A stretch of 35,086 bases of DNA from a virus (IMGVR_UViG_3300009678_000106:1-35086), one strand, 5' to 3'. Counted from the first letter of the stretch, positions 1,993 to 8,770 are shown. A program made the numbers and translations. Notes: generated by a model from the sequence alone, not told the origin.

Positions 1993-3782
1993 TGGATTAC
2001 AGGGACTTTAACATAGACATAAGAAGTAGTAAAACATCGGGAGAGGTGCAAACTACTTGCCCACAATGCTCGCATAACAGAAAAAAGAAAACAGATAAAT
2101 GCCTTTCAATAAATTTGGATAAAAGTACTTGGTTTTGCCATCACTGTAGTTGGAAAGGCGGTTTAATTAATCATGTTGAAAAAATCGAGTATGTTAAGCC
2201 TATTTGGAAAAACAAAACTGAACTTTCTGAAAACGTAGTTAAATGGTTTGAAGGTCGTGGGATTTCACAAAACACGCTAAAGCATTTTAAAATTTCGGAG
2301 TCGTTGGAATTTATGCCACAAGTGAATAAAGAAGTAAATACAATTCAGTTTAACTACTTCCGTAACGATGAGTTGGTCAATGTGAAGTACAGAAGCGGTT
2401 CTAAGGCATTTAAATTACACAAAGGCTCAGAGTTATTATTTTACAATTTGGATTGCTTAAAAGGCTTTAAAACGGTTTTGATATGTGAGGGCGAAATTGA
2501 TGCAATGACTTTCTTTGAATGTGGTTTTGAAAATGTTATTTCAGTTCCGAATGGCGCAAACATAAATACAAATAATTTAGTGTACTTAGATAACTGCATA
2601 AATGAGTTGGAAGGGGTTGAAACTTTTTACATCGCAACTGATAACGATATTGCAGGGCGTAAATTAAGATATGATTTAGCGGAACGGTTAGGAATTGAAA
2701 ACTGCAAGTACTTAGAATTTGACGAATACAAAGACGCAAACGATTTATTTCAGCACAAAGGCAGCATTTCAATTAAAAACGCAGTTAACAACGCAAAAGA
2801 TTTTCCTTTAGAGGGAGTGTTTACCATTTCGGATATAGATAACGAGATAAACGATATGTATGTTAATGGATTAGATAATGGCGTTGCAACCGGAATGAAT
2901 GAATTTGATAAGCATTTGAGATTTGTTAAGGGATATATCACAACAGTAACCGGAATACCAGGACACGGTAAATCCGACTTCGTAGATCAAATAGCATTGC
3001 TTTTAAATATTCAAAACGGTTGGAAATTTGCGTTTTACTCACCGGAAAACAAACCGACACGATTACACGTTTCTAAACTTGCAAGAAAGTTAACAGGCAA
3101 AAAATGGTTTGGCGATGGCAGATTATCAATTGACGAATTAAACGACTGCAAAAACTATTTAGACGGCAAATTTTGGTTTGTTAAGCCGGAAAAGGATTTT
3201 ACCTTAGATAGTATTTTATCGCACGTTAAAAGACTTAAAAAGACAAAAGGAATAGATGCGTTTGTTATTGATGCGTGGAACAAATTAGAGCATAAATTTA
3301 CTCAAAACGAAACTAAATACATTGGTGAAAGTCTGGATAAGTTAGCGACGTTTTGCGAAGATAACCAAGTGCATTGTTTTTTAGTTGCTCACCCGACAAA
3401 GATTTTTAAATCAAAGGAAACAGGTAAATATGAAGTTCCAACGCTTTACAATATCGCAGGATCAGCAAACTTTTATAATAAAACTGATAACGGTATAACT
3501 GTTTACAGGGATTTTCAGGAAGAGAAAACAAATATATTCGTTCAGAAAGTTAAGTTTTCGCATTGGGGGGAAGTTGGCTGTGTTGACTTTAGGTATCATT
3601 TAGATTCAGGAAGGTACATTGACGACCATAACGAAAAAATATTTAGTTGGTTAGATTATAAAAACCAAAAAGAACAACCGGAAGTTAAAGAAGTTGAACA
3701 AATTGATTATACTATTCCAAAAGTATCTTTATTAGATGCGTTTGGAGAAAGTTACAACGAAGAAAGTGAGGTAGTATTTTAA
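1992..3782 (+). CDS. Bifunctional primase-helicase (T7 gp4/Twinkle-like)
   Basis: Zn finger CPQC...CHHC, TOPRIM EGEIDA and DNDIAG, SF4 Walker A GIPGHGKS, VIDAW, LVAHP. Confidence 0.92.
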   Translation: MDYRDFNIDIRSSKTSGEVQTTCPQCSHNRKKKTDKCLSINLDKSTWFCHHCSWKGGLINHVEKIEYVKPIWKNKTELSENVVKWFEGRGISQNTLKHFKISESLEFMPQVNKEVNTIQFNYFRNDELVNVKYRSGSKAFKLHKGSELLFYNLDCLKGFKTVLICEGEIDAMTFFECGFENVISVPNGANINTNNLVYLDNCINELEGVETFYIATDNDIAGRKLRYDLAERLGIENCKYLEFDEYKDANDLFQHKGSISIKNAVNNAKDFPLEGVFTISDIDNEINDMYVNGLDNGVATGMNEFDKHLRFVKGYITTVTGIPGHGKSDFVDQIALLLNIQNGWKFAFYSPENKPTRLHVSKLARKLTGKKWFGDGRLSIDELNDCKNYLDGKFWFVKPEKDFTLDSILSHVKRLKKTKGIDAFVIDAWNKLEHKFTQNETKYIGESLDKLATFCEDNQVHCFLVAHPTKIFKSKETGKYEVPTLYNIAGSANFYNKTDNGITVYRDFQEEKTNIFVQKVKFSHWGEVGCVDFRYHLDSGRYIDDHNEKIFSWLDYKNQKEQPEVKEVEQIDYTIPKVSLLDAFGESYNEESEVVF

Positions 3783-3842
3783 CAAAGACGCTCTTCCTTA
3801 TTTAATTGACGAAGGATTTATTTAATTAGAAAAAACAATATT

Positions 3843-4474
3843 ATGAAAGTATTAAATTTATATGCTTGTTTAGGCGGAAACAGATTATTGTGGGATAATT
3901 GCGAAGTAACAGCAGTTGAATTGGATCCAGAATTAGCACGAATGTATCAGGAACGATTCCCGAATGATACGGTAATCATTGCGGATGCGCACAATATTTA
4001 TTAGGCCATTATAAAGAGTTTGATTTTATTTGGACTTCACCGCCTTGTCCTACCCACTCAAGGGCTAGGTTTGCAAGACATGAAAGCACAACGCCTGAAT
4101 ATCCAAACATGATGCTTTACCAAGAAATTATATTTTTAAAACATTACTTTAAAGGTAAGTTTTGCGTTGAAAATGTTGTGCCATTTTATGAGCCACTTAT
4201 TACAGCAGCAAAAAGGGGACGGCATTTGTATTGGACAAATTTTAATTTGCCAAATGTGTTATCTGAAAGAAAATCTAACTTTATGGAAGGCAAAGACGAG
4301 GTGACAAAGTGGCAAGAATTTCATAAAATAGATCTAAGCAGTTATAAAGGTGAGCAACGAAAAGATAAAATAGCCAGGAATTTAGTCGATTACGTAGCTG
4401 GTAAAACTATTTTCGACACTATGAGAGGGATTACAGAGCAAACTAAAAATAATCAGATTTCAATGTTTAAGTGA
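3843..4474 (+). pseudogene. C5-cytosine DNA methyltransferase with a 1-nt frameshift near 3992
   Basis: First frame MKVLNLYACLGG...VELD...ADAH (motif I) stops at 4004; a second frame continues YLLGHYKEFDFIWTSPPCPTHS (motif IV) and VENV (motif VI) to 4474. Confidence 0.85.
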
Positions 4475-4518
4475 AATGTTAAAATTTCGTGCAGTTCGTC
4501 GATTAATTAAAAAAAGTA

Positions 4519-4549
4519 GTTGCTAGTGTAAAAATAAGTATTACTTTTA
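4519..4549 (+). promoter_or_regulatory. Possible variant Bacteroidota promoter
   Basis: GTTG-N19-TACTTTTA, one mismatch in each box. Confidence 0.35.
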
Positions 4550-4581
4550 CATCATAATAATAACACATAAAAATAAATATT

Positions 4582-4809
4582 ATGAAAACTTCATCAACAC
4601 ACACAAACCCGGTAGCAACAGAAAAAAGAGCTAAAGAAATATTAATTTCTTTAGGTGCTACAAATTTTGAAAATAGAACAACTACTAAATGGTTCGGGGA
4701 TTGTAATCAAATAGTTGGATTCGATGACGATTTTGATGTAATAGGGCACATTTCAGTAGATGAAAATGAAGGAGATGATTCTTTTTCTATTGAAGAGGTA
4801 TTAAGTTAA
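4582..4809 (+). CDS. Hypothetical protein (stand-alone, moron-like unit)
   Basis: ORF with A-rich leader, flanked by a possible promoter and a terminator. Confidence 0.7.
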   Translation: MKTSSTHTNPVATEKRAKEILISLGATNFENRTTTKWFGDCNQIVGFDDDFDVIGHISVDENEGDDSFSIEEVLS

Positions 4810-4818
4810 AAATAATAA

Positions 4819-4839
4819 AGCCCTTTCGGGGGCTATTTT
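4819..4839 (+). terminator. Intrinsic terminator-like hairpin
   Basis: AGCCCT-TTCG-GGGGCT followed by ATTTT. Confidence 0.65.
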
Positions 4840-4848
4840 AAAAAAAGT

Positions 4849-4977
4849 ATGAAAAAAGCATTTTACTTTTTAATCCTGATTCAAGGAATAAGAGAATACA
4901 ACCCGAATAAGGAACGATACGCAAGAATGAAACTAACAAAGTATTACGAACCAACAACATTAAAAATTTTATCATGA
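4849..4977 (+). CDS. Small hypothetical protein (42 aa)
   Basis: MKKAFYFLILIQG...; ATGA overlap with next ORF. Confidence 0.45.
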   Translation: MKKAFYFLILIQGIREYNPNKERYARMKLTKYYEPTTLKILS

Positions 4978-5147
4978 AAGCACTAGAGTACAAAGGATAT
5001 GCGATATATAAAAGTGATCACGTTGTTTACATTCCATTGCAAAAAAACCTGAAATATGAATTTTACAATTTAAATAATTGTGATGAATGTATCTACTTTG
5101 GAGAAACAATTGAAGACTGCAAAAAACAAATAGACGAAAAACTTTAA
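4974..5147 (+). CDS. Small hypothetical protein (57 aa)
   Basis: MKALEYKGYAIYK...TIEDCKKQIDEKL; below the ORF-track cutoff. Confidence 0.6.
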   Translation: MKALEYKGYAIYKSDHVVYIPLQKNLKYEFYNLNNCDECIYFGETIEDCKKQIDEKL

Positions 5148-5159
5148 ACACAAAAATAC

Positions 5160-5372
5160 ATGGCATATTCTAACAGATTATATTTAAAAGAGCATATTGG
5201 ATGTTTCGGTTTATTTTATAACGACCAAAAGGACAAGACAATTAAAATAGGTAAATTAATATCTGTAACTGAAAATGGAAACTGCGAAGATCAAGATATG
5301 ATATATTATGACAATTTTCGCCCAAAAACAAAAGAAGAAATATTTAAATTATTAGACCGTAAAATAACATAA
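5160..5372 (+). CDS. Hypothetical protein
   Basis: ORF tightly packed in the + strand operon. Confidence 0.65.
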   Translation: MAYSNRLYLKEHIGCFGLFYNDQKDKTIKIGKLISVTENGNCEDQDMIYYDNFRPKTKEEIFKLLDRKIT

Positions 5373-5378
5373 AAAATT

Positions 5379-5885
5379 ATGAAAAAAATTATCACAATCG
5401 CGTTATTAGCTATCGGAATGACAGCAAGCGCACAGTTACAATTTGGACAAAAAGAGTATTTTACAGGCTCTGTTTATGTCGATCCTTCAGCGTCTATTAA
5501 AGAAGGCGGAATAAATGCCGGTGCAGAAATAGAACTTGTATCGTATTTCGGATATGTTAAAGCTGGAGTACAAACATTTGATTCTCTCGAAGGTGGATAC
5601 TTTGATATTTCAGGGGCATTAGGTTTAAACCTTACAAGTGGATTATTTGAACAATTTAGATATTACGGAGGTATTAGGCTAGGGGTAATTAATAGAGGCT
5701 ACAAAGACAGCGGCTCACAGCCTTATCCTTTATTTGGCTTTGAAAGCGGAATTGATTACAATGTAAGTGAAAAGTATTTTGTTGGCTTACGTGGCACGGC
5801 AGACTATCGAGAAGACTTTTTATACAGCGGTGCAAGCCCTGAATACAGATTAAGCGGGTTTATTAGAGCAGGATTTAAATTTTAG
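5379..5885 (+). CDS. Small outer-membrane beta-barrel protein
   Basis: Signal peptide MKKIITIALLAIGMTASA|Q, alternating hydrophobic/Gly strands, C-terminal RAGFKF ending in Phe. Confidence 0.8.
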   Translation: MKKIITIALLAIGMTASAQLQFGQKEYFTGSVYVDPSASIKEGGINAGAEIELVSYFGYVKAGVQTFDSLEGGYFDISGALGLNLTSGLFEQFRYYGGIRLGVINRGYKDSGSQPYPLFGFESGIDYNVSEKYFVGLRGTADYREDFLYSGASPEYRLSGFIRAGFKF

Positions 5886-5888
5886 GTC

Positions 5889-6047
5889 ATGAAAGCAGTG
5901 TATACAATCCAACATGATAATTTTAATAAATCATGCGATGAAATAAAAGAAATTGCTTTGTATAATTGGTATGTTCTTAATATAGTCGAATATCATTATA
6001 TTACATATTACGAAGAGAGACATAGAAGCTTAGTTTATGGCGGATAA
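5889..6047 (+). CDS. Small hypothetical protein (52 aa)
   Basis: MKAVYTIQHDNF...; fills the gap and overlaps the next start. Confidence 0.45.
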   Translation: MKAVYTIQHDNFNKSCDEIKEIALYNWYVLNIVEYHYITYYEERHRSLVYGG

Positions 6048-6270
6048 AATACAAATAAAAGATAAAGTTATCAGAGTCGATACTTTTGAATGGCAGGAGT
6101 ATGAAGGAAGGAAAATAAGGCAGTCAGGGCTTAGAATAAACGGACAGATGCCGGAAAAATATGTAGAAGGATATTGGAAAAGGCATTGGATTTACACTTT
6201 CTTTTACGAGGATTTAAGCTACTTTGAAATTGAAGTTGATTATTCAGATAAATTCGTTAAAAAGTTATAA
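6037..6270 (+). CDS. Hypothetical protein; stop codon forms the TAAC of the first att-like site
   Basis: ORF ends TTA TAA C at 6265-6271. Confidence 0.7.
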   Translation: MADKIQIKDKVIRVDTFEWQEYEGRKIRQSGLRINGQMPEKYVEGYWKRHWIYTFFYEDLSYFEIEVDYSDKFVKKL

Positions 6271-6342
6271 CGTTCGATGGCTTTAATTCAGTTGCGCCCT
6301 ACGCGCAAACTACTTTGGCGCAATTGATTAAAACCATTGTTA
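6268..6342. repeat. attC-like hairpin 1 (75 bp)
   Basis: TAACgttcg ATGGCTTTAATTCAGTTGCGCC ... GGCGCAATTGATTAAAACCAT tGTTA. Confidence 0.85.
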
Positions 6343-6395
6343 ACCGCTGTTTTTTACGCAAGATTAGAAAATAATTAAAATATTTTTCAAAAACA

Positions 6396-6426
6396 TTTGG
6401 CAATTAGAGAATAAGACGTATATTTG
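6396..6426 (+). promoter_or_regulatory. Bacteroidota promoter internal to cassette 1
   Basis: TTTG(6396-6399)-N19-TATATTTG(6419-6426). Confidence 0.7.
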
Positions 6427-6468
6427 CTAAAGAAATGACAACGAAGTTATTTTGTAAATCTTAAAAAA

Positions 6469-6753
6469 ATGGAAACTCAATTAGCAAAAAACTGGAACAG
6501 ATTAGAAAGAAGCGAAAAATTAGAAGTTATCGAAAACGCAATTGATATGTGTAACACAAAAGAAGGTTTTTTGATGTTAAGAACTTGGGCAAAAGACAAT
6601 TCTGTAACCGCTCACATTCAAATAGAATTAGACAATCATTTATGTTCAGAAGCTGTATCTCAAGACACTTTATTTTCTTTATTTGGTTCGGATTATGATT
6701 TTAAAGAAGAAGATGCGGAAGTTATTTTAACTTGGATGGAAAGCCAAATATAA
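6469..6753 (+). CDS. Cassette 1 gene A, acidic hypothetical protein
   Basis: 94 aa ORF after the internal promoter. Confidence 0.75.
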   Translation: METQLAKNWNRLERSEKLEVIENAIDMCNTKEGFLMLRTWAKDNSVTAHIQIELDNHLCSEAVSQDTLFSLFGSDYDFKEEDAEVILTWMESQI

Positions 6754-6956
6754 TGCCATTCATTTTAAAAAATAAAGAAACCGAACAATACAGATTGTTC
6801 GGTTCTTTACCTATCCTTTGCCGCAGTATTGGATTTGATGAAAAACAAGAGAAATCACTTAGTTATATTTTCTCACAGAAAAAAGAGATTAAAACCGAAA
6901 AAGAAGGTTTTGAAATTATCAAGTTAGATCTTGAACGCGGAGGTTTTTCAAAATAG
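6753..6956 (+). CDS. Cassette 1 gene B, small hypothetical protein (possibly DNA-binding)
   Basis: TAATG coupling at 6751-6755; MPFILKNKETEQYRLFGSLPILCRSIGF... Confidence 0.7.
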   Translation: MPFILKNKETEQYRLFGSLPILCRSIGFDEKQEKSLSYIFSQKKEIKTEKEGFEIIKLDLERGGFSK

Positions 6957-6960
6957 CGGT

Positions 6961-7050
6961 TAACGAGTTGCCAGTTTTGCGAGGTAACTTGAAAGCACAC
7001 AACTACCAAACAATTAATCACTTAGCAGTTATCTTGCAAAACTGCTGTTA
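6961..7050. repeat. attC-like hairpin 2 (90 bp)
   Basis: TAACgagttgc CAGTTTTGCGAGGTAACT ... AGTTATCTTGCAAAACTG ctGTTA. Confidence 0.85.
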
Positions 7051-7064
7051 TAAACAGTAATATT

Positions 7065-7334
7065 ATGGAAAGACTTAGTGATAATAATAATATATTTTTA
7101 GAAGACGGTTCTTTTTGCTCTAAAGATGATTTAATAAATTTATACAGATTACAACGTGTTTTGTTAATTGAAGAAAATATACTAGTAAATATAATTGAAT
7201 GTATAAATATTTGGCAAAATTTTTCTTCATCATTACAGGCATCTTGGTTATTTTTCCCTGATAAAGATGAAGAAATTTTAAAATATATTTATTCAAGTGA
7301 TTATTTCACAACGTTTGAAGATTATTGTTTATAA
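7065..7334 (+). CDS. Cassette 2 hypothetical protein
   Basis: ATG 15 nt after GTTA; stop codon lies inside the next TAAC; very AT-rich. Confidence 0.75.
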   Translation: MERLSDNNNIFLEDGSFCSKDDLINLYRLQRVLLIEENILVNIIECINIWQNFSSSLQASWLFFPDKDEEILKYIYSSDYFTTFEDYCL

Positions 7335-7461
7335 CGTCCCGGTGCTTTCTGTCAGTGGCTTCGAGTAAACACTTACCACACCAACGCAAAACCAACATTA
7401 AACTAATTGACGTTTTTCCGAAGGAAAAACATAACCAAGCCATTGCAGAAAACACTTGTTA
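7332..7461. repeat. attC-like hairpin 3 (130 bp)
   Basis: TAACgtcccg GTGCTTTCTGTCAGTGGCTT ... AAGCCATTGCAGAAAACAC ttGTTA; inner hairpin GTTTTTCC-GAA-GGAAAAAC. Confidence 0.85.
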
Positions 7462-7502
7462 TGCGATGGTGTTTTTAGATATTAATTTAATAAATTATAA
7501 AA

Positions 7503-7883
7503 ATGAAAATACAAGAAAACTACTTCTACAAATTAGACAATTCAAAAGAAGTAAAAGTAATTTGGAAAAAATATGATAAAGCCAATATTTTAGAAATTGG
7601 AATTGAATACCCAACCGCAATAGTTGACTTGGATAGGTTTACAGGAATGCCATTAACTAAAGAATGGCTTTTAAAATTTGGTTTTTTTGTTGTGGGAATG
7701 AATGGATTAATTGAAGCTACATTACCAAATTTTAGATACACACTAAATCAAGTCAAAGACTACGACGGTTTTATACTTTGTGAAAATGAAAATGCACTTA
7801 TGTATATTGATTATGTTCACGAACTTCAAGATTTATTTTATGTATTATTAAAAAGAGATTTATTATTTTCTAATGCGGTTTAG
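7503..7883 (+). CDS. Cassette 3 hypothetical phage-type protein
   Basis: PLTKEWLLKFGF...YVHELQDLFYVL, recalled as a Bacteroidota phage hypothetical family. Confidence 0.75.
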   Translation: MKIQENYFYKLDNSKEVKVIWKKYDKANILEIGIEYPTAIVDLDRFTGMPLTKEWLLKFGFFVVGMNGLIEATLPNFRYTLNQVKDYDGFILCENENALMYIDYVHELQDLFYVLLKRDLLFSNAV

Positions 7884-7895
7884 TAGCATCTCGCA

Positions 7896-8024
7896 TAACG
7901 ATTCGCCCGCTTTACGCTGACAAGGAAAAACAAACCATAAACTTTGATTTACGCTAAAAGTTTACTGATACAAAACAAACATTCAATTAATAAATACAGC
8001 CTTGTTTGCGTAAAACGGCTGTTA
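7896..8024. repeat. attC-like hairpin 4 (129 bp)
   Basis: TAACgattcgc CCGCTTTACGCTGACAAGG ... CCTTGTTTGCGTAAAACGG ctGTTA. Confidence 0.85.
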
Positions 8025-8039
8025 TAAACAGGCTACATT

Positions 8040-8354
8040 ATGGATATGGTAGAAGAATATTTACAAAAGTACAAAGTAGGATTCCCCACTTTTGAAAAAT
8101 TATTCAATCTTAAAAAAGAGGAATTAATTAAAATATTGAGAGAATTATGTTCTCACGATAAAAATTGTGAGGAAGTTTTAGAAGATAACAGCAATGTTTA
8201 TAAATTTATCGAAAACGATAAGCCAACAAAAATAAAAATATGCTCTTGGAGTATTATTGAAATTACGCCAACAGGAATTTATTATAAACCTGAGCATGGA
8301 ATAGGAAAAGACATCGTTTTATTCAACAAGTTTTTTACACTAAGTTTGGAATAG
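8040..8354 (+). CDS. Cassette 4 hypothetical protein
   Basis: ORF fills the space between hairpins 4 and 5. Confidence 0.75.
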   Translation: MDMVEEYLQKYKVGFPTFEKLFNLKKEELIKILRELCSHDKNCEEVLEDNSNVYKFIENDKPTKIKICSWSIIEITPTGIYYKPEHGIGKDIVLFNKFFTLSLE

Positions 8355-8362
8355 CTTGTAGA

Positions 8363-8452
8363 TAACGTATCGGGGCTTTGCGTAGTAGCCCTTAGTAGAA
8401 ACTTAAAATTAACCACGACACTTTATAGGGCTATTACGCAAAACCCTTGTTA
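8363..8452. repeat. attC-like hairpin 5 (90 bp)
   Basis: TAACgtatcg GGGCTTTGCGTAGTAGCCCT ... AGGGCTATTACGCAAAACCC ttGTTA. Confidence 0.85.
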
Positions 8453-8473
8453 TGTGCCGTTATTATTCGCAAG

Positions 8474-8680
8474 ATGAAAGCAGAAACAAAAAAGATATTG
8501 AAGGAACAAGGCAAACTTGACCTTTACACAGATGAACGATTTGAGCAGGTTAAAGCCGTAATGAAACACGGAATAACCAAAGACGCTTGGTTGAAAAACT
8601 ATCTGTCATTAGACCCACTAAATAAGGCTCAATGGTGTGCAGACCACTTGGTCAAGTTTGTTGAAGGTGGTCACTTATAA
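8474..8680 (+). CDS. Cassette 5 hypothetical protein (68 aa)
   Basis: ATG 8474 (MKAETKK...) preferred over the TTG inside the hairpin. Confidence 0.7.
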   Translation: MKAETKKILKEQGKLDLYTDERFEQVKAVMKHGITKDAWLKNYLSLDPLNKAQWCADHLVKFVEGGHL

Positions 8681-8687
8681 TTGCACA

Positions 8688-8770
8688 TAACTCAGATATT
8701 GACGCAATGCTCAAAATTAAATATATTTATAAAGCATTGATAATCAATTAAAACTAATTGCGCAAAAACA
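8688..8770. other. Terminal att-like site of the array (attI-like or degenerate sixth site)
   Basis: TAAC closes cassette 5 but is followed by TCAGATATTGACGCAAT instead of the consensus hairpin; ATTGATAATCAAT palindrome at 8736-8748. Confidence 0.5.

Follow-up and report, generated by a model that had tools for sequence, protein, structure and literature searches.

We consider it probable that the viral record IMGVR_UViG_3300009678_000106 carries a five-unit cassette array, each unit being a hairpin followed by one or more genes between paired 15-base ends, and that the units are shuffled by an integron-like tyrosine recombinase supplied by the host. The record (hereafter the window, the whole stretch of 35,086 nucleotides that was analysed, estimated by a tool to be 92% complete) has the array between its replication genes and the terminase (Table 1). 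The evidence consists of the anatomy of the units, exchange points in AAC at the 3' end of the gene, the presence of units in further neighbourhoods, the relocation of one unit between cultured phages, association of related arrays with a recombinase, and opposite gene polarity in phages and chromosomes, all of which we observed. The array works like an integron but lies outside the classical integron family, because several defining features of that family were tested for and not found.

Paired ends of the cassette modules

An earlier note on this DNA, made from the sequence alone, had held that the two ends of each module match each other and not those of their neighbours, and all ten end strings that it listed were found where it had placed them. 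Beyond the GTTA, own ends matched at 43 of 55 positions (positions 5-15; C1 10/11, C2 10/11, C3 6/11, C4 8/11, C5 9/11), whereas flanks on either side of the same hairpin, likewise described there as pairing poorly beyond TAAC/GTTA, matched at 12 of 55 (3, 3, 2, 1 and 3 of 11 per hairpin). Over 12, 15 and 20 nt, the true pairing of ends ranked first among 120 permutations; over 9 nt it was tied (2/120). When all GTTA/TAAC pairs of the window were compared (231 x 241), only two reached 10/11, namely C1 and C2. At least 8/11 occurred at a background frequency of 0.003 and at least 6/11 at 0.055, so that C3 taken alone is not significant. A G stood opposite a T at position 11 in all five modules, a feature absent from the earlier note. 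The stem reached 15 bp, and the complementarity is thus longer than the 7-bp R box of classical attC sites, as had been claimed. Joining own ends gained 11.7, 4.5, 5.2, 1.0 and 6.7 kcal/mol of folding energy for units 1-5, respectively. A strict finder, requiring the hairpin signature and end pairing in chains of at least two on both strands, returned exactly these five modules in 35 kb. Each module was preceded by one hairpin body, and no hairpin followed C5.

Table 1. Features of the cassette array in the window
Feature	Coordinates	Strand	Description
Left border of array	6257..6271	+	End of open reading frame (ORF) 6037-6270, stop codon inside TAAC; no matching GTT arm upstream
Hairpin body H0	6272..6338	+	67 nt, head of unit 1; folds
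Module C1	6339..6964	+	15-bp paired ends; ORFs 6469-6753 (94 aa) and 6753-6956
Hairpin body H1	6965..7046	+	82 nt, head of unit 2; folds
Module C2	7047..7335	+	ORF 7065-7334 (89 aa, no family)
Hairpin body H2	7336..7457	+	122 nt, head of unit 3; folds
Module C3	7458..7899	+	ORF 7503-7883 (126 aa, phrog_10066, unknown function)
Hairpin body H3	7900..8020	+	121 nt, head of unit 4; folds
Module C4	8021..8366	+	ORF 8040-8354 (104 aa, no family); two mismatches in ends
Hairpin body H4	8367..8448	+	82 nt, head of unit 5; folds; occurs elsewhere with other genes
Module C5	8449..8691	+	ORF 8474-8680 (68 aa)
Terminal non-hairpin site	8689..8707	+	Candidate attI-like insertion site; no hairpin; position; modest profile score

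The same rule was evaluated in related loci, with copies of the window (L001, L035, L044, L099, L129) excluded from counts and overlapping loci collapsed. Across 349 distinct end pairs, not counting the C3 type (the finder required 4/6 pairs plus G and T), positions 5-9 were paired in 95-99% compared to 27-41% in shuffled controls, with all four pair types represented. At 315 of 325 junctions in other loci, own ends paired better than the flanks of the same hairpin. Where sites were found from the hairpin alone, own ends had 6-7/7 matches in 173 of 242 intervals and same-hairpin flanks in 8 of 242; in this set, 140 of 180 well-paired modules carried G·T at position 11. Homologs of C3 in three loci (L002-L004) aligned only from 7457 to 7899-7906, stood in other neighbourhoods, and had GTTG/CAAC in place of GTTA/TAAC, i.e. 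their ends covary. The C3 end pair also brackets many unrelated genes, with the partner end present in 58 of 91 motif matches; most modules with this end pair had ~50% identity to C3. Similarly, the C1 gene pair in L007 had a different end pair, again self-matching, and the C1 end pair encloses other genes in the cultured phage lillamy9-1. In L009-L014 the first C1 gene was found without cassette ends.

In L008 (3900-4500), the C1 gene pair retained its 3' end and the next hairpin and lacked the 5' arm, which gives the impression of an oldest unit being absorbed into the phage backbone. C1 also contains TAnnTTTG at 6419, which we take to be a promoter-like element. As this element (window 6390-6430) also precedes the homologs without cassette ends in L009-L014, the C1 cassette seems to have been captured as DNA, not from mRNA.

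The mobile unit and its exchange point

The earlier note took the stretch from GTT to AAC as the whole mobile unit, which proved incorrect, since the upstream hairpin travels with the gene and exchange takes place at the AAC behind the gene, an arrangement opposite to that of classical cassettes. Its expectation that the same cassette would occur in different neighbourhoods held, both for the C3 homologs and for modules that share at least 99% identity and stand in different settings; in the latter, the upstream hairpin was kept in 7/7 pairs and the downstream one differed in 11/12. A case resolved to the base came from lillamy9-1 and lillamy9-3, cultured Baltic Flavobacterium phages (both 38,268 bp), which over the 6.7 kb compared differed by one base and by the position of a 439-bp unit (a 119-bp hairpin plus a 320-bp module). 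This unit was mid-array in lillamy9-1, and in lillamy9-3 and lillamy9-7 it occupied the terminal non-hairpin site; the joints shared 6 and 7 bases, and the move may have run in either direction. The phage sniff9-2 lacked the 439-bp unit, and snork6-2 lacked a terminal 342-bp unit. Recurrence together with this relocation bears out the proposal that units move independently. The suggested crossover in the AAC core also agreed with the data: exchange points were confined to AAC at the 3' end of the gene, with joints within 6-12 bp, ending at or next to AAC. For C2 in the window, a contig of run X7 departed right after AAC into another hairpin-type sequence, and for C5, contigs 8432-8691 (run X12) and 8433-8694 (run X20) comprised the end of H4 plus C5. 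Loose contig ends lay around H4 at 8362-8363 and 8451-8479 in runs X12, X19 and X20. In one exception (L021/L075), a hairpin plus ~20 nt of the next module were common and the cargo differed inside that module. An interpretation in which neither hairpin moves with the gene was rejected, as it holds only for diverged module pairs.

H4 is a widely reused hairpin: in runs X12 and X20 it reached high depth, flanked on either side by several different genes. Other arrays were larger: the lillamy, sniff and snork loci (L291-L298; ~2,000-8,000, minus strand) held 10-12 units in the first 8 kb, and two further phage arrays (L112 and L122) had 16 and 18 units. In the Flavobacterium saccharophilum DSM 1811 chromosome (L266, 12662-15705), a 970-bp cassette occurred twice in one array, with identical attached hairpins and different neighbours.

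Anatomy and strandedness of the sites

On the strand reading AAC-hairpin-GTT, ~6 unpaired nt after AAC face 2 nt before GTT, the 2-nt side of this central spacer having been fixed beforehand from the window folds. The hairpin stem is ~15 bp with an invariant T-A, and 213 of 313 hairpins lacked a bulge; in 207 of these 213, a G·T pair was found at a fixed place. Each site therefore has one G·T in each arm, gene-side and hairpin-side. The strand with the G·T pairs folded better, by ~4 kcal/mol, at 97% of the 278 junctions of phage type and at 96% of the 53 chromosomal ones. No credible Rfam match was found in the window or in 22 related loci. The Flavo-1 RNA motif (RF01705) was considered and rejected, as there was no match to the Rfam model and the example sequences in the supplement look unrelated.

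Gene polarity relative to the G·T strand differed between the two pools. Among modules of at least 300 nt, 217 of 234 from phages or metagenomes had their longest ORF on the G·T strand, and 69 of 77 chromosomal ones had it on the opposite strand. Chromosomal arrays thus have the classical order of insertion site, gene and hairpin, with the hairpin 3' of the gene, the non-coding strand as the folding strand, and genes pointing away from attI. In phages, the window included, the hairpin comes first and the gene then points to the insertion site. In some metagenome modules (L052, L054, L080, L084) the C3 end pair enclosed a reversed gene, and the ends are therefore common to both pools.

We postulate that the coding strand would fold as single-stranded DNA and be cut in AAC, and that hairpin and module would leave as a circle in which the own ends pair. 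This would complete a two-armed site with a 15-bp gene-side arm, an asymmetric central loop and a hairpin-side arm, in which one G·T per arm may be a recognition mark replacing extrahelical bases. The circle could then re-insert at the terminal non-hairpin site, and for the window array a Bacteroidota host enzyme would work in trans. Selection on own-end pairing is proposed because the circle's own ends would complete the 15-bp arm. The earlier note had the full stem forming only in an excised circle; flanks did pair poorly in the array, but the circle need not be the exclusive setting, as a linear single strand looping out the gene would let its own ends pair too.

The terminal site and the linked recombinase

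The non-hairpin site at the end of the window array is likely, judging from its position and a modest profile score, an attI-like insertion site; its equivalent holds the relocated unit in lillamy9-3 and lillamy9-7. It ranked second of 734 YAAC sites against a profile of 17 other terminal sites, and fourth of 734 against the chromosomal profile. Its scores, 3.3 for the chromosomal and -0.8 for the phage-recombinase profile, weakly suggest a fit to a host enzyme. Several phage arrays end 43-54 bp before a gene for a tyrosine recombinase of 266-267 aa, with a conserved attI-like site in this position. We fetched 80 viral loci of the recombinase, of which 53 had 1.5 kb upstream; an array lay upstream on the same strand in 42 of these 53, and on the opposite strand in none. 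We also evaluated 80 genome loci of the recombinase (~40-45% identical, mostly Bacteroidota), where an array lay downstream of the recombinase in 26 of 47 with room and upstream in 0 of 72. Related recombinases are also encoded on two plasmids (H80, H83), one from Chryseobacterium, with 70% identity, and one from Clostridium.

The linked enzymes were not classical integron integrases. Four phage recombinases scored 127-139 bits and two chromosomal ones 200-206 bits, compared to the IntI cut-off (TIGR02249) of 265, and there was no IntI in the window. Alignments of the linked recombinases to VchIntIA (2A3V) break at the site of the integron-specific insertion, lacking ~48 residues (phage) or ~42 residues (chromosome) relative to that structure. 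They may belong near the XerA-like enzymes of NCBIfam NF040815 ('site-specific tyrosine recombinase/integron integrase'), though the phage enzymes, of 266-267 aa, fall short of that family (158-192). Smyshlyaev 2021 (PMC8138268) noted integron-like recombinases in which the insertion is incomplete. Neither NF040815 nor the available text of that paper describes these sites or arrays. As the 92%-complete contig has no recombinase, a host enzyme would act in trans on the window array.

Several observations weigh against the reading of the array as cassettes shuffled by a host-supplied recombinase. No tyrosine recombinase (PF00589) was found in the window record (0/1; control 14/14), which is 92% complete, nor in four of the cultured phages (0/4), and the enzyme is tied to the window and cultured-phage arrays by neighbourhood in relatives only, the host genomes LMO6 and LMO9 being outside the search. 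The lillamy terminal site scored below zero on both recombinase-adjacent profiles. Circle junctions, which the earlier note had suggested looking for, and cassette-skipping joints were not seen at the boundaries in the low-depth contigs of 8 runs. The ends are also imperfect: those of C3 pair over only 9 nt without a gap, and those of C4 have two true mismatches. Because C2 and C4 have identical first 11 nt, the start of C4 is a better fit to the end of C2 (5/5 over positions 5-9) than to its own (3/5). Within the window, units 3-5 showed a small strand preference of folding, and unit 3 none. End pairing is a selection criterion of the module finders, and the 7 and 12 nearly identical module pairs come mostly from few related arrays and are non-independent. 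The upstream hairpin was kept in only 2 of 7 pairs at 90-99% identity and in 0 of 15 below 90%, and in L042 and L094 the module is identical, starting one base before GTT, while the upstream hairpins differ. Since diverged pairs and L042/L094 differ upstream, replacement of hairpins occurs at the GTT side as well, though more rarely, with opposite-strand exchange and cassette-making events as candidates. The best match to a recombinase remnant in the window had a tblastn E of 8.4.

Comparison with known integrons and alternative explanations

Own-end complementarity that is broken in arrays is a known rule of integron cassettes (Loot 2017, PMC5371416, in the part available); hence own-end matching itself is known, and what is unusual here is the stem length, the G·T pairs and the polarity. 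Like integrons, and especially sedentary chromosomal ones, the arrays have an AAC exchange core, hairpin sites of comparable length, and a single non-hairpin insertion site at the recombinase end where excised units would be re-inserted. Near-uniform hairpins within a chromosome (L286, L266) are a further likeness to sedentary chromosomal integrons. Classical attC sites have a 7-bp R box, 2-3 extrahelical bases and a 5-6 nt spacer in each arm (Nivina 2016, PMC5027507, as far as accessible). Here, the gene-side stem has 15 bp, both arms carry a conserved G·T, no extrahelical base is conserved, the central spacer is asymmetric, the linked recombinase lacks the IntI insertion, and in phages the hairpin precedes a gene pointing to the insertion site, with the coding strand as the likely substrate.

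An ordinary cluster of attC sites lacking integrases (CALIN), with classical attC sites served by a classical IntI, could account for the AAC/GTT core, hairpins of 67-122 nt and the own-end rule. Indeed, the window array is a cluster of cassette sites without a neighbouring integrase, though its sites are attC-like and not classical attC. Phage CALINs are known in 17 phages, including the Polaribacter phage P12002L (Qi 2023, PMC9892861); according to the accessible part of that study, these integrase-less arrays carry methyltransferase cargo in some cases, were found with classical attC models, and were mostly recombined by IntI1 on the bottom strand. Nevertheless, none of the five window ends fully fits RYYYAAC/GTTRRRY, 213 of 313 hairpins show no bulge where classical sites have two or three extrahelical bases close to the L box, the spacer is ~6 nt against 2 nt where 5-6 nt are expected on each arm, neighbouring recombinases score far below the IntI cut-off and lack the insertion, and the hairpin is 5' of the gene. 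We thus regard an ordinary CALIN as unlikely. Phage mosaicism arising from repeats through homologous or micro-homologous recombination, with hairpins acting as RNA (terminators or processing sites), is in keeping with a phage that has no recombinase, with homology offered by common ends and leaders, and with cargo swapped inside common ends. Yet the joints share only 6-7 bp, one unit sits on a non-hairpin site, own ends covary across hundreds of bases, Rfam gave no match, and the strand-specific G·T marks of chromosomal arrays are on the non-coding strand, which makes mosaicism very improbable.

Each GTT..AAC module might instead be a miniature transposon with terminal inverted repeats, inserting into hairpin targets. 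Paired ends do bracket the gene, and hairpins were exchanged on both sides of diverged modules, once exactly at GTT. However, recent moves include the upstream hairpin, the linked enzyme is a tyrosine recombinase, and ends vary freely among the 349 pairs, unlike transposase-bound repeats, so that we find this still harder to credit. Chance complementarity in AT-rich DNA gains a little from there being only five units and from C3 alone lying at the background of 0.055; it is scarcely credible when no permutation among 120 surpasses the true pairing, and the hundreds of covarying pairs elsewhere refute it. A cassette array reordered by an integron-like recombinase from the host remains the reading we prefer.

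We put forward more tentatively that these arrays may represent a separate integron-like lineage of Bacteroidota and their phages, in which inverted phage arrays borrow a host recombinase that reorders or drops host-range methyltransferase cassettes, and in which the 15-bp ends, variable but invariably paired, were written together at cassette making (one end copied from the other, promoter-bearing DNA being captured directly). If this were so, cassette origin would be testable in a cultured phage-host pair. If active, this would be a large gene-shuffling system that has been overlooked, since IntegronFinder reports almost no complete Bacteroidetes integrons (one in Bacteroidetes proper, according to the available text on IntegronFinder 2.0, PMC9024848), and single-strand cassette recombination would be shown to work without the IntI insertion and without extrahelical bases. 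Host cassettes entering a phage array would be silenced by the inverted polarity, and vice versa. Long, variable, paired ends offer a handle on how cassettes arise. We found no published description of this system in open PMC papers and bioRxiv, subscription papers being outside this coverage; none appeared in the accessible parts of PMC8618304, PMC11602168, PMC9723704, bioRxiv 2024.07.02.601686 and the supplements of PMC2864571.

Cargo and host range

Window cassette proteins had no assigned function: Pfam and PHROGs gave no family except phrog_10066 for C3, and the C5 protein had 54 homologs, all merely hypothetical. Among phage cassette proteins of at least 100 aa, of which 45 of 102 were scanned, 6 were DNA methyltransferases and 37 had no Pfam family. 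Of chromosomal cassette proteins (50 of 54 scanned), 24 fell in varied families. Chromosomal cassettes included a LinB-like nucleotidyltransferase (L264:16677-17444), MerT-HMA (L239:13316-13912) and a GmrSD restriction enzyme (L287:11738-13876).

Cultured phages with natural cassette moves exist, and their cargo may bear on host range. Phages without one methyltransferase plate 3-4 log lower on LMO6 (Nilsson 2020, PMC7077304); in the part of its Table S13 that was available, lillamy and morran have no entry in the column that lists sniff9-1 orf 17 and snork6-1 orf 16. Both orf numbers fall on a 775-bp methyltransferase cassette, which likely matches the gene tied to LMO6 plating and tracks the plating difference, as a correlation. 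Nilsson 2020 makes no mention of an integron, cassette or hairpin.

Genomic setting and array borders

The + strand of the window encodes NinG, primase-helicase, terminase, portal, capsid and endolysin genes. Of 28 phage records with homologs of hairpin H0, 27 belonged to Flavobacterium phages, and a Flavobacterium-type bacterium is the likely host on the strength of these hairpin homologs. The left border of the array is likely either an arm of the original insertion site that was displaced or the worn end of a cassette. We sought a relative of ORF 6037-6270 and found none, and a 20-base search of viral contigs for an empty insertion site returned only a copy of the window phage. One locus (L006) was a distant relative with no clear array.

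A methyltransferase-like frame at 3843-4474, recognized by its look and not by a family match, consists of two parts, 3843-4004 and 4109-4474, perhaps separated by a frameshift near 4000. The 168-aa protein encoded at 5379-5885 had no Pfam or PHROG match; its signal-peptide-like start and C-terminal Phe are suggestive of an outer-membrane beta-barrel. A gene resembling it also precedes the array in locus L003.

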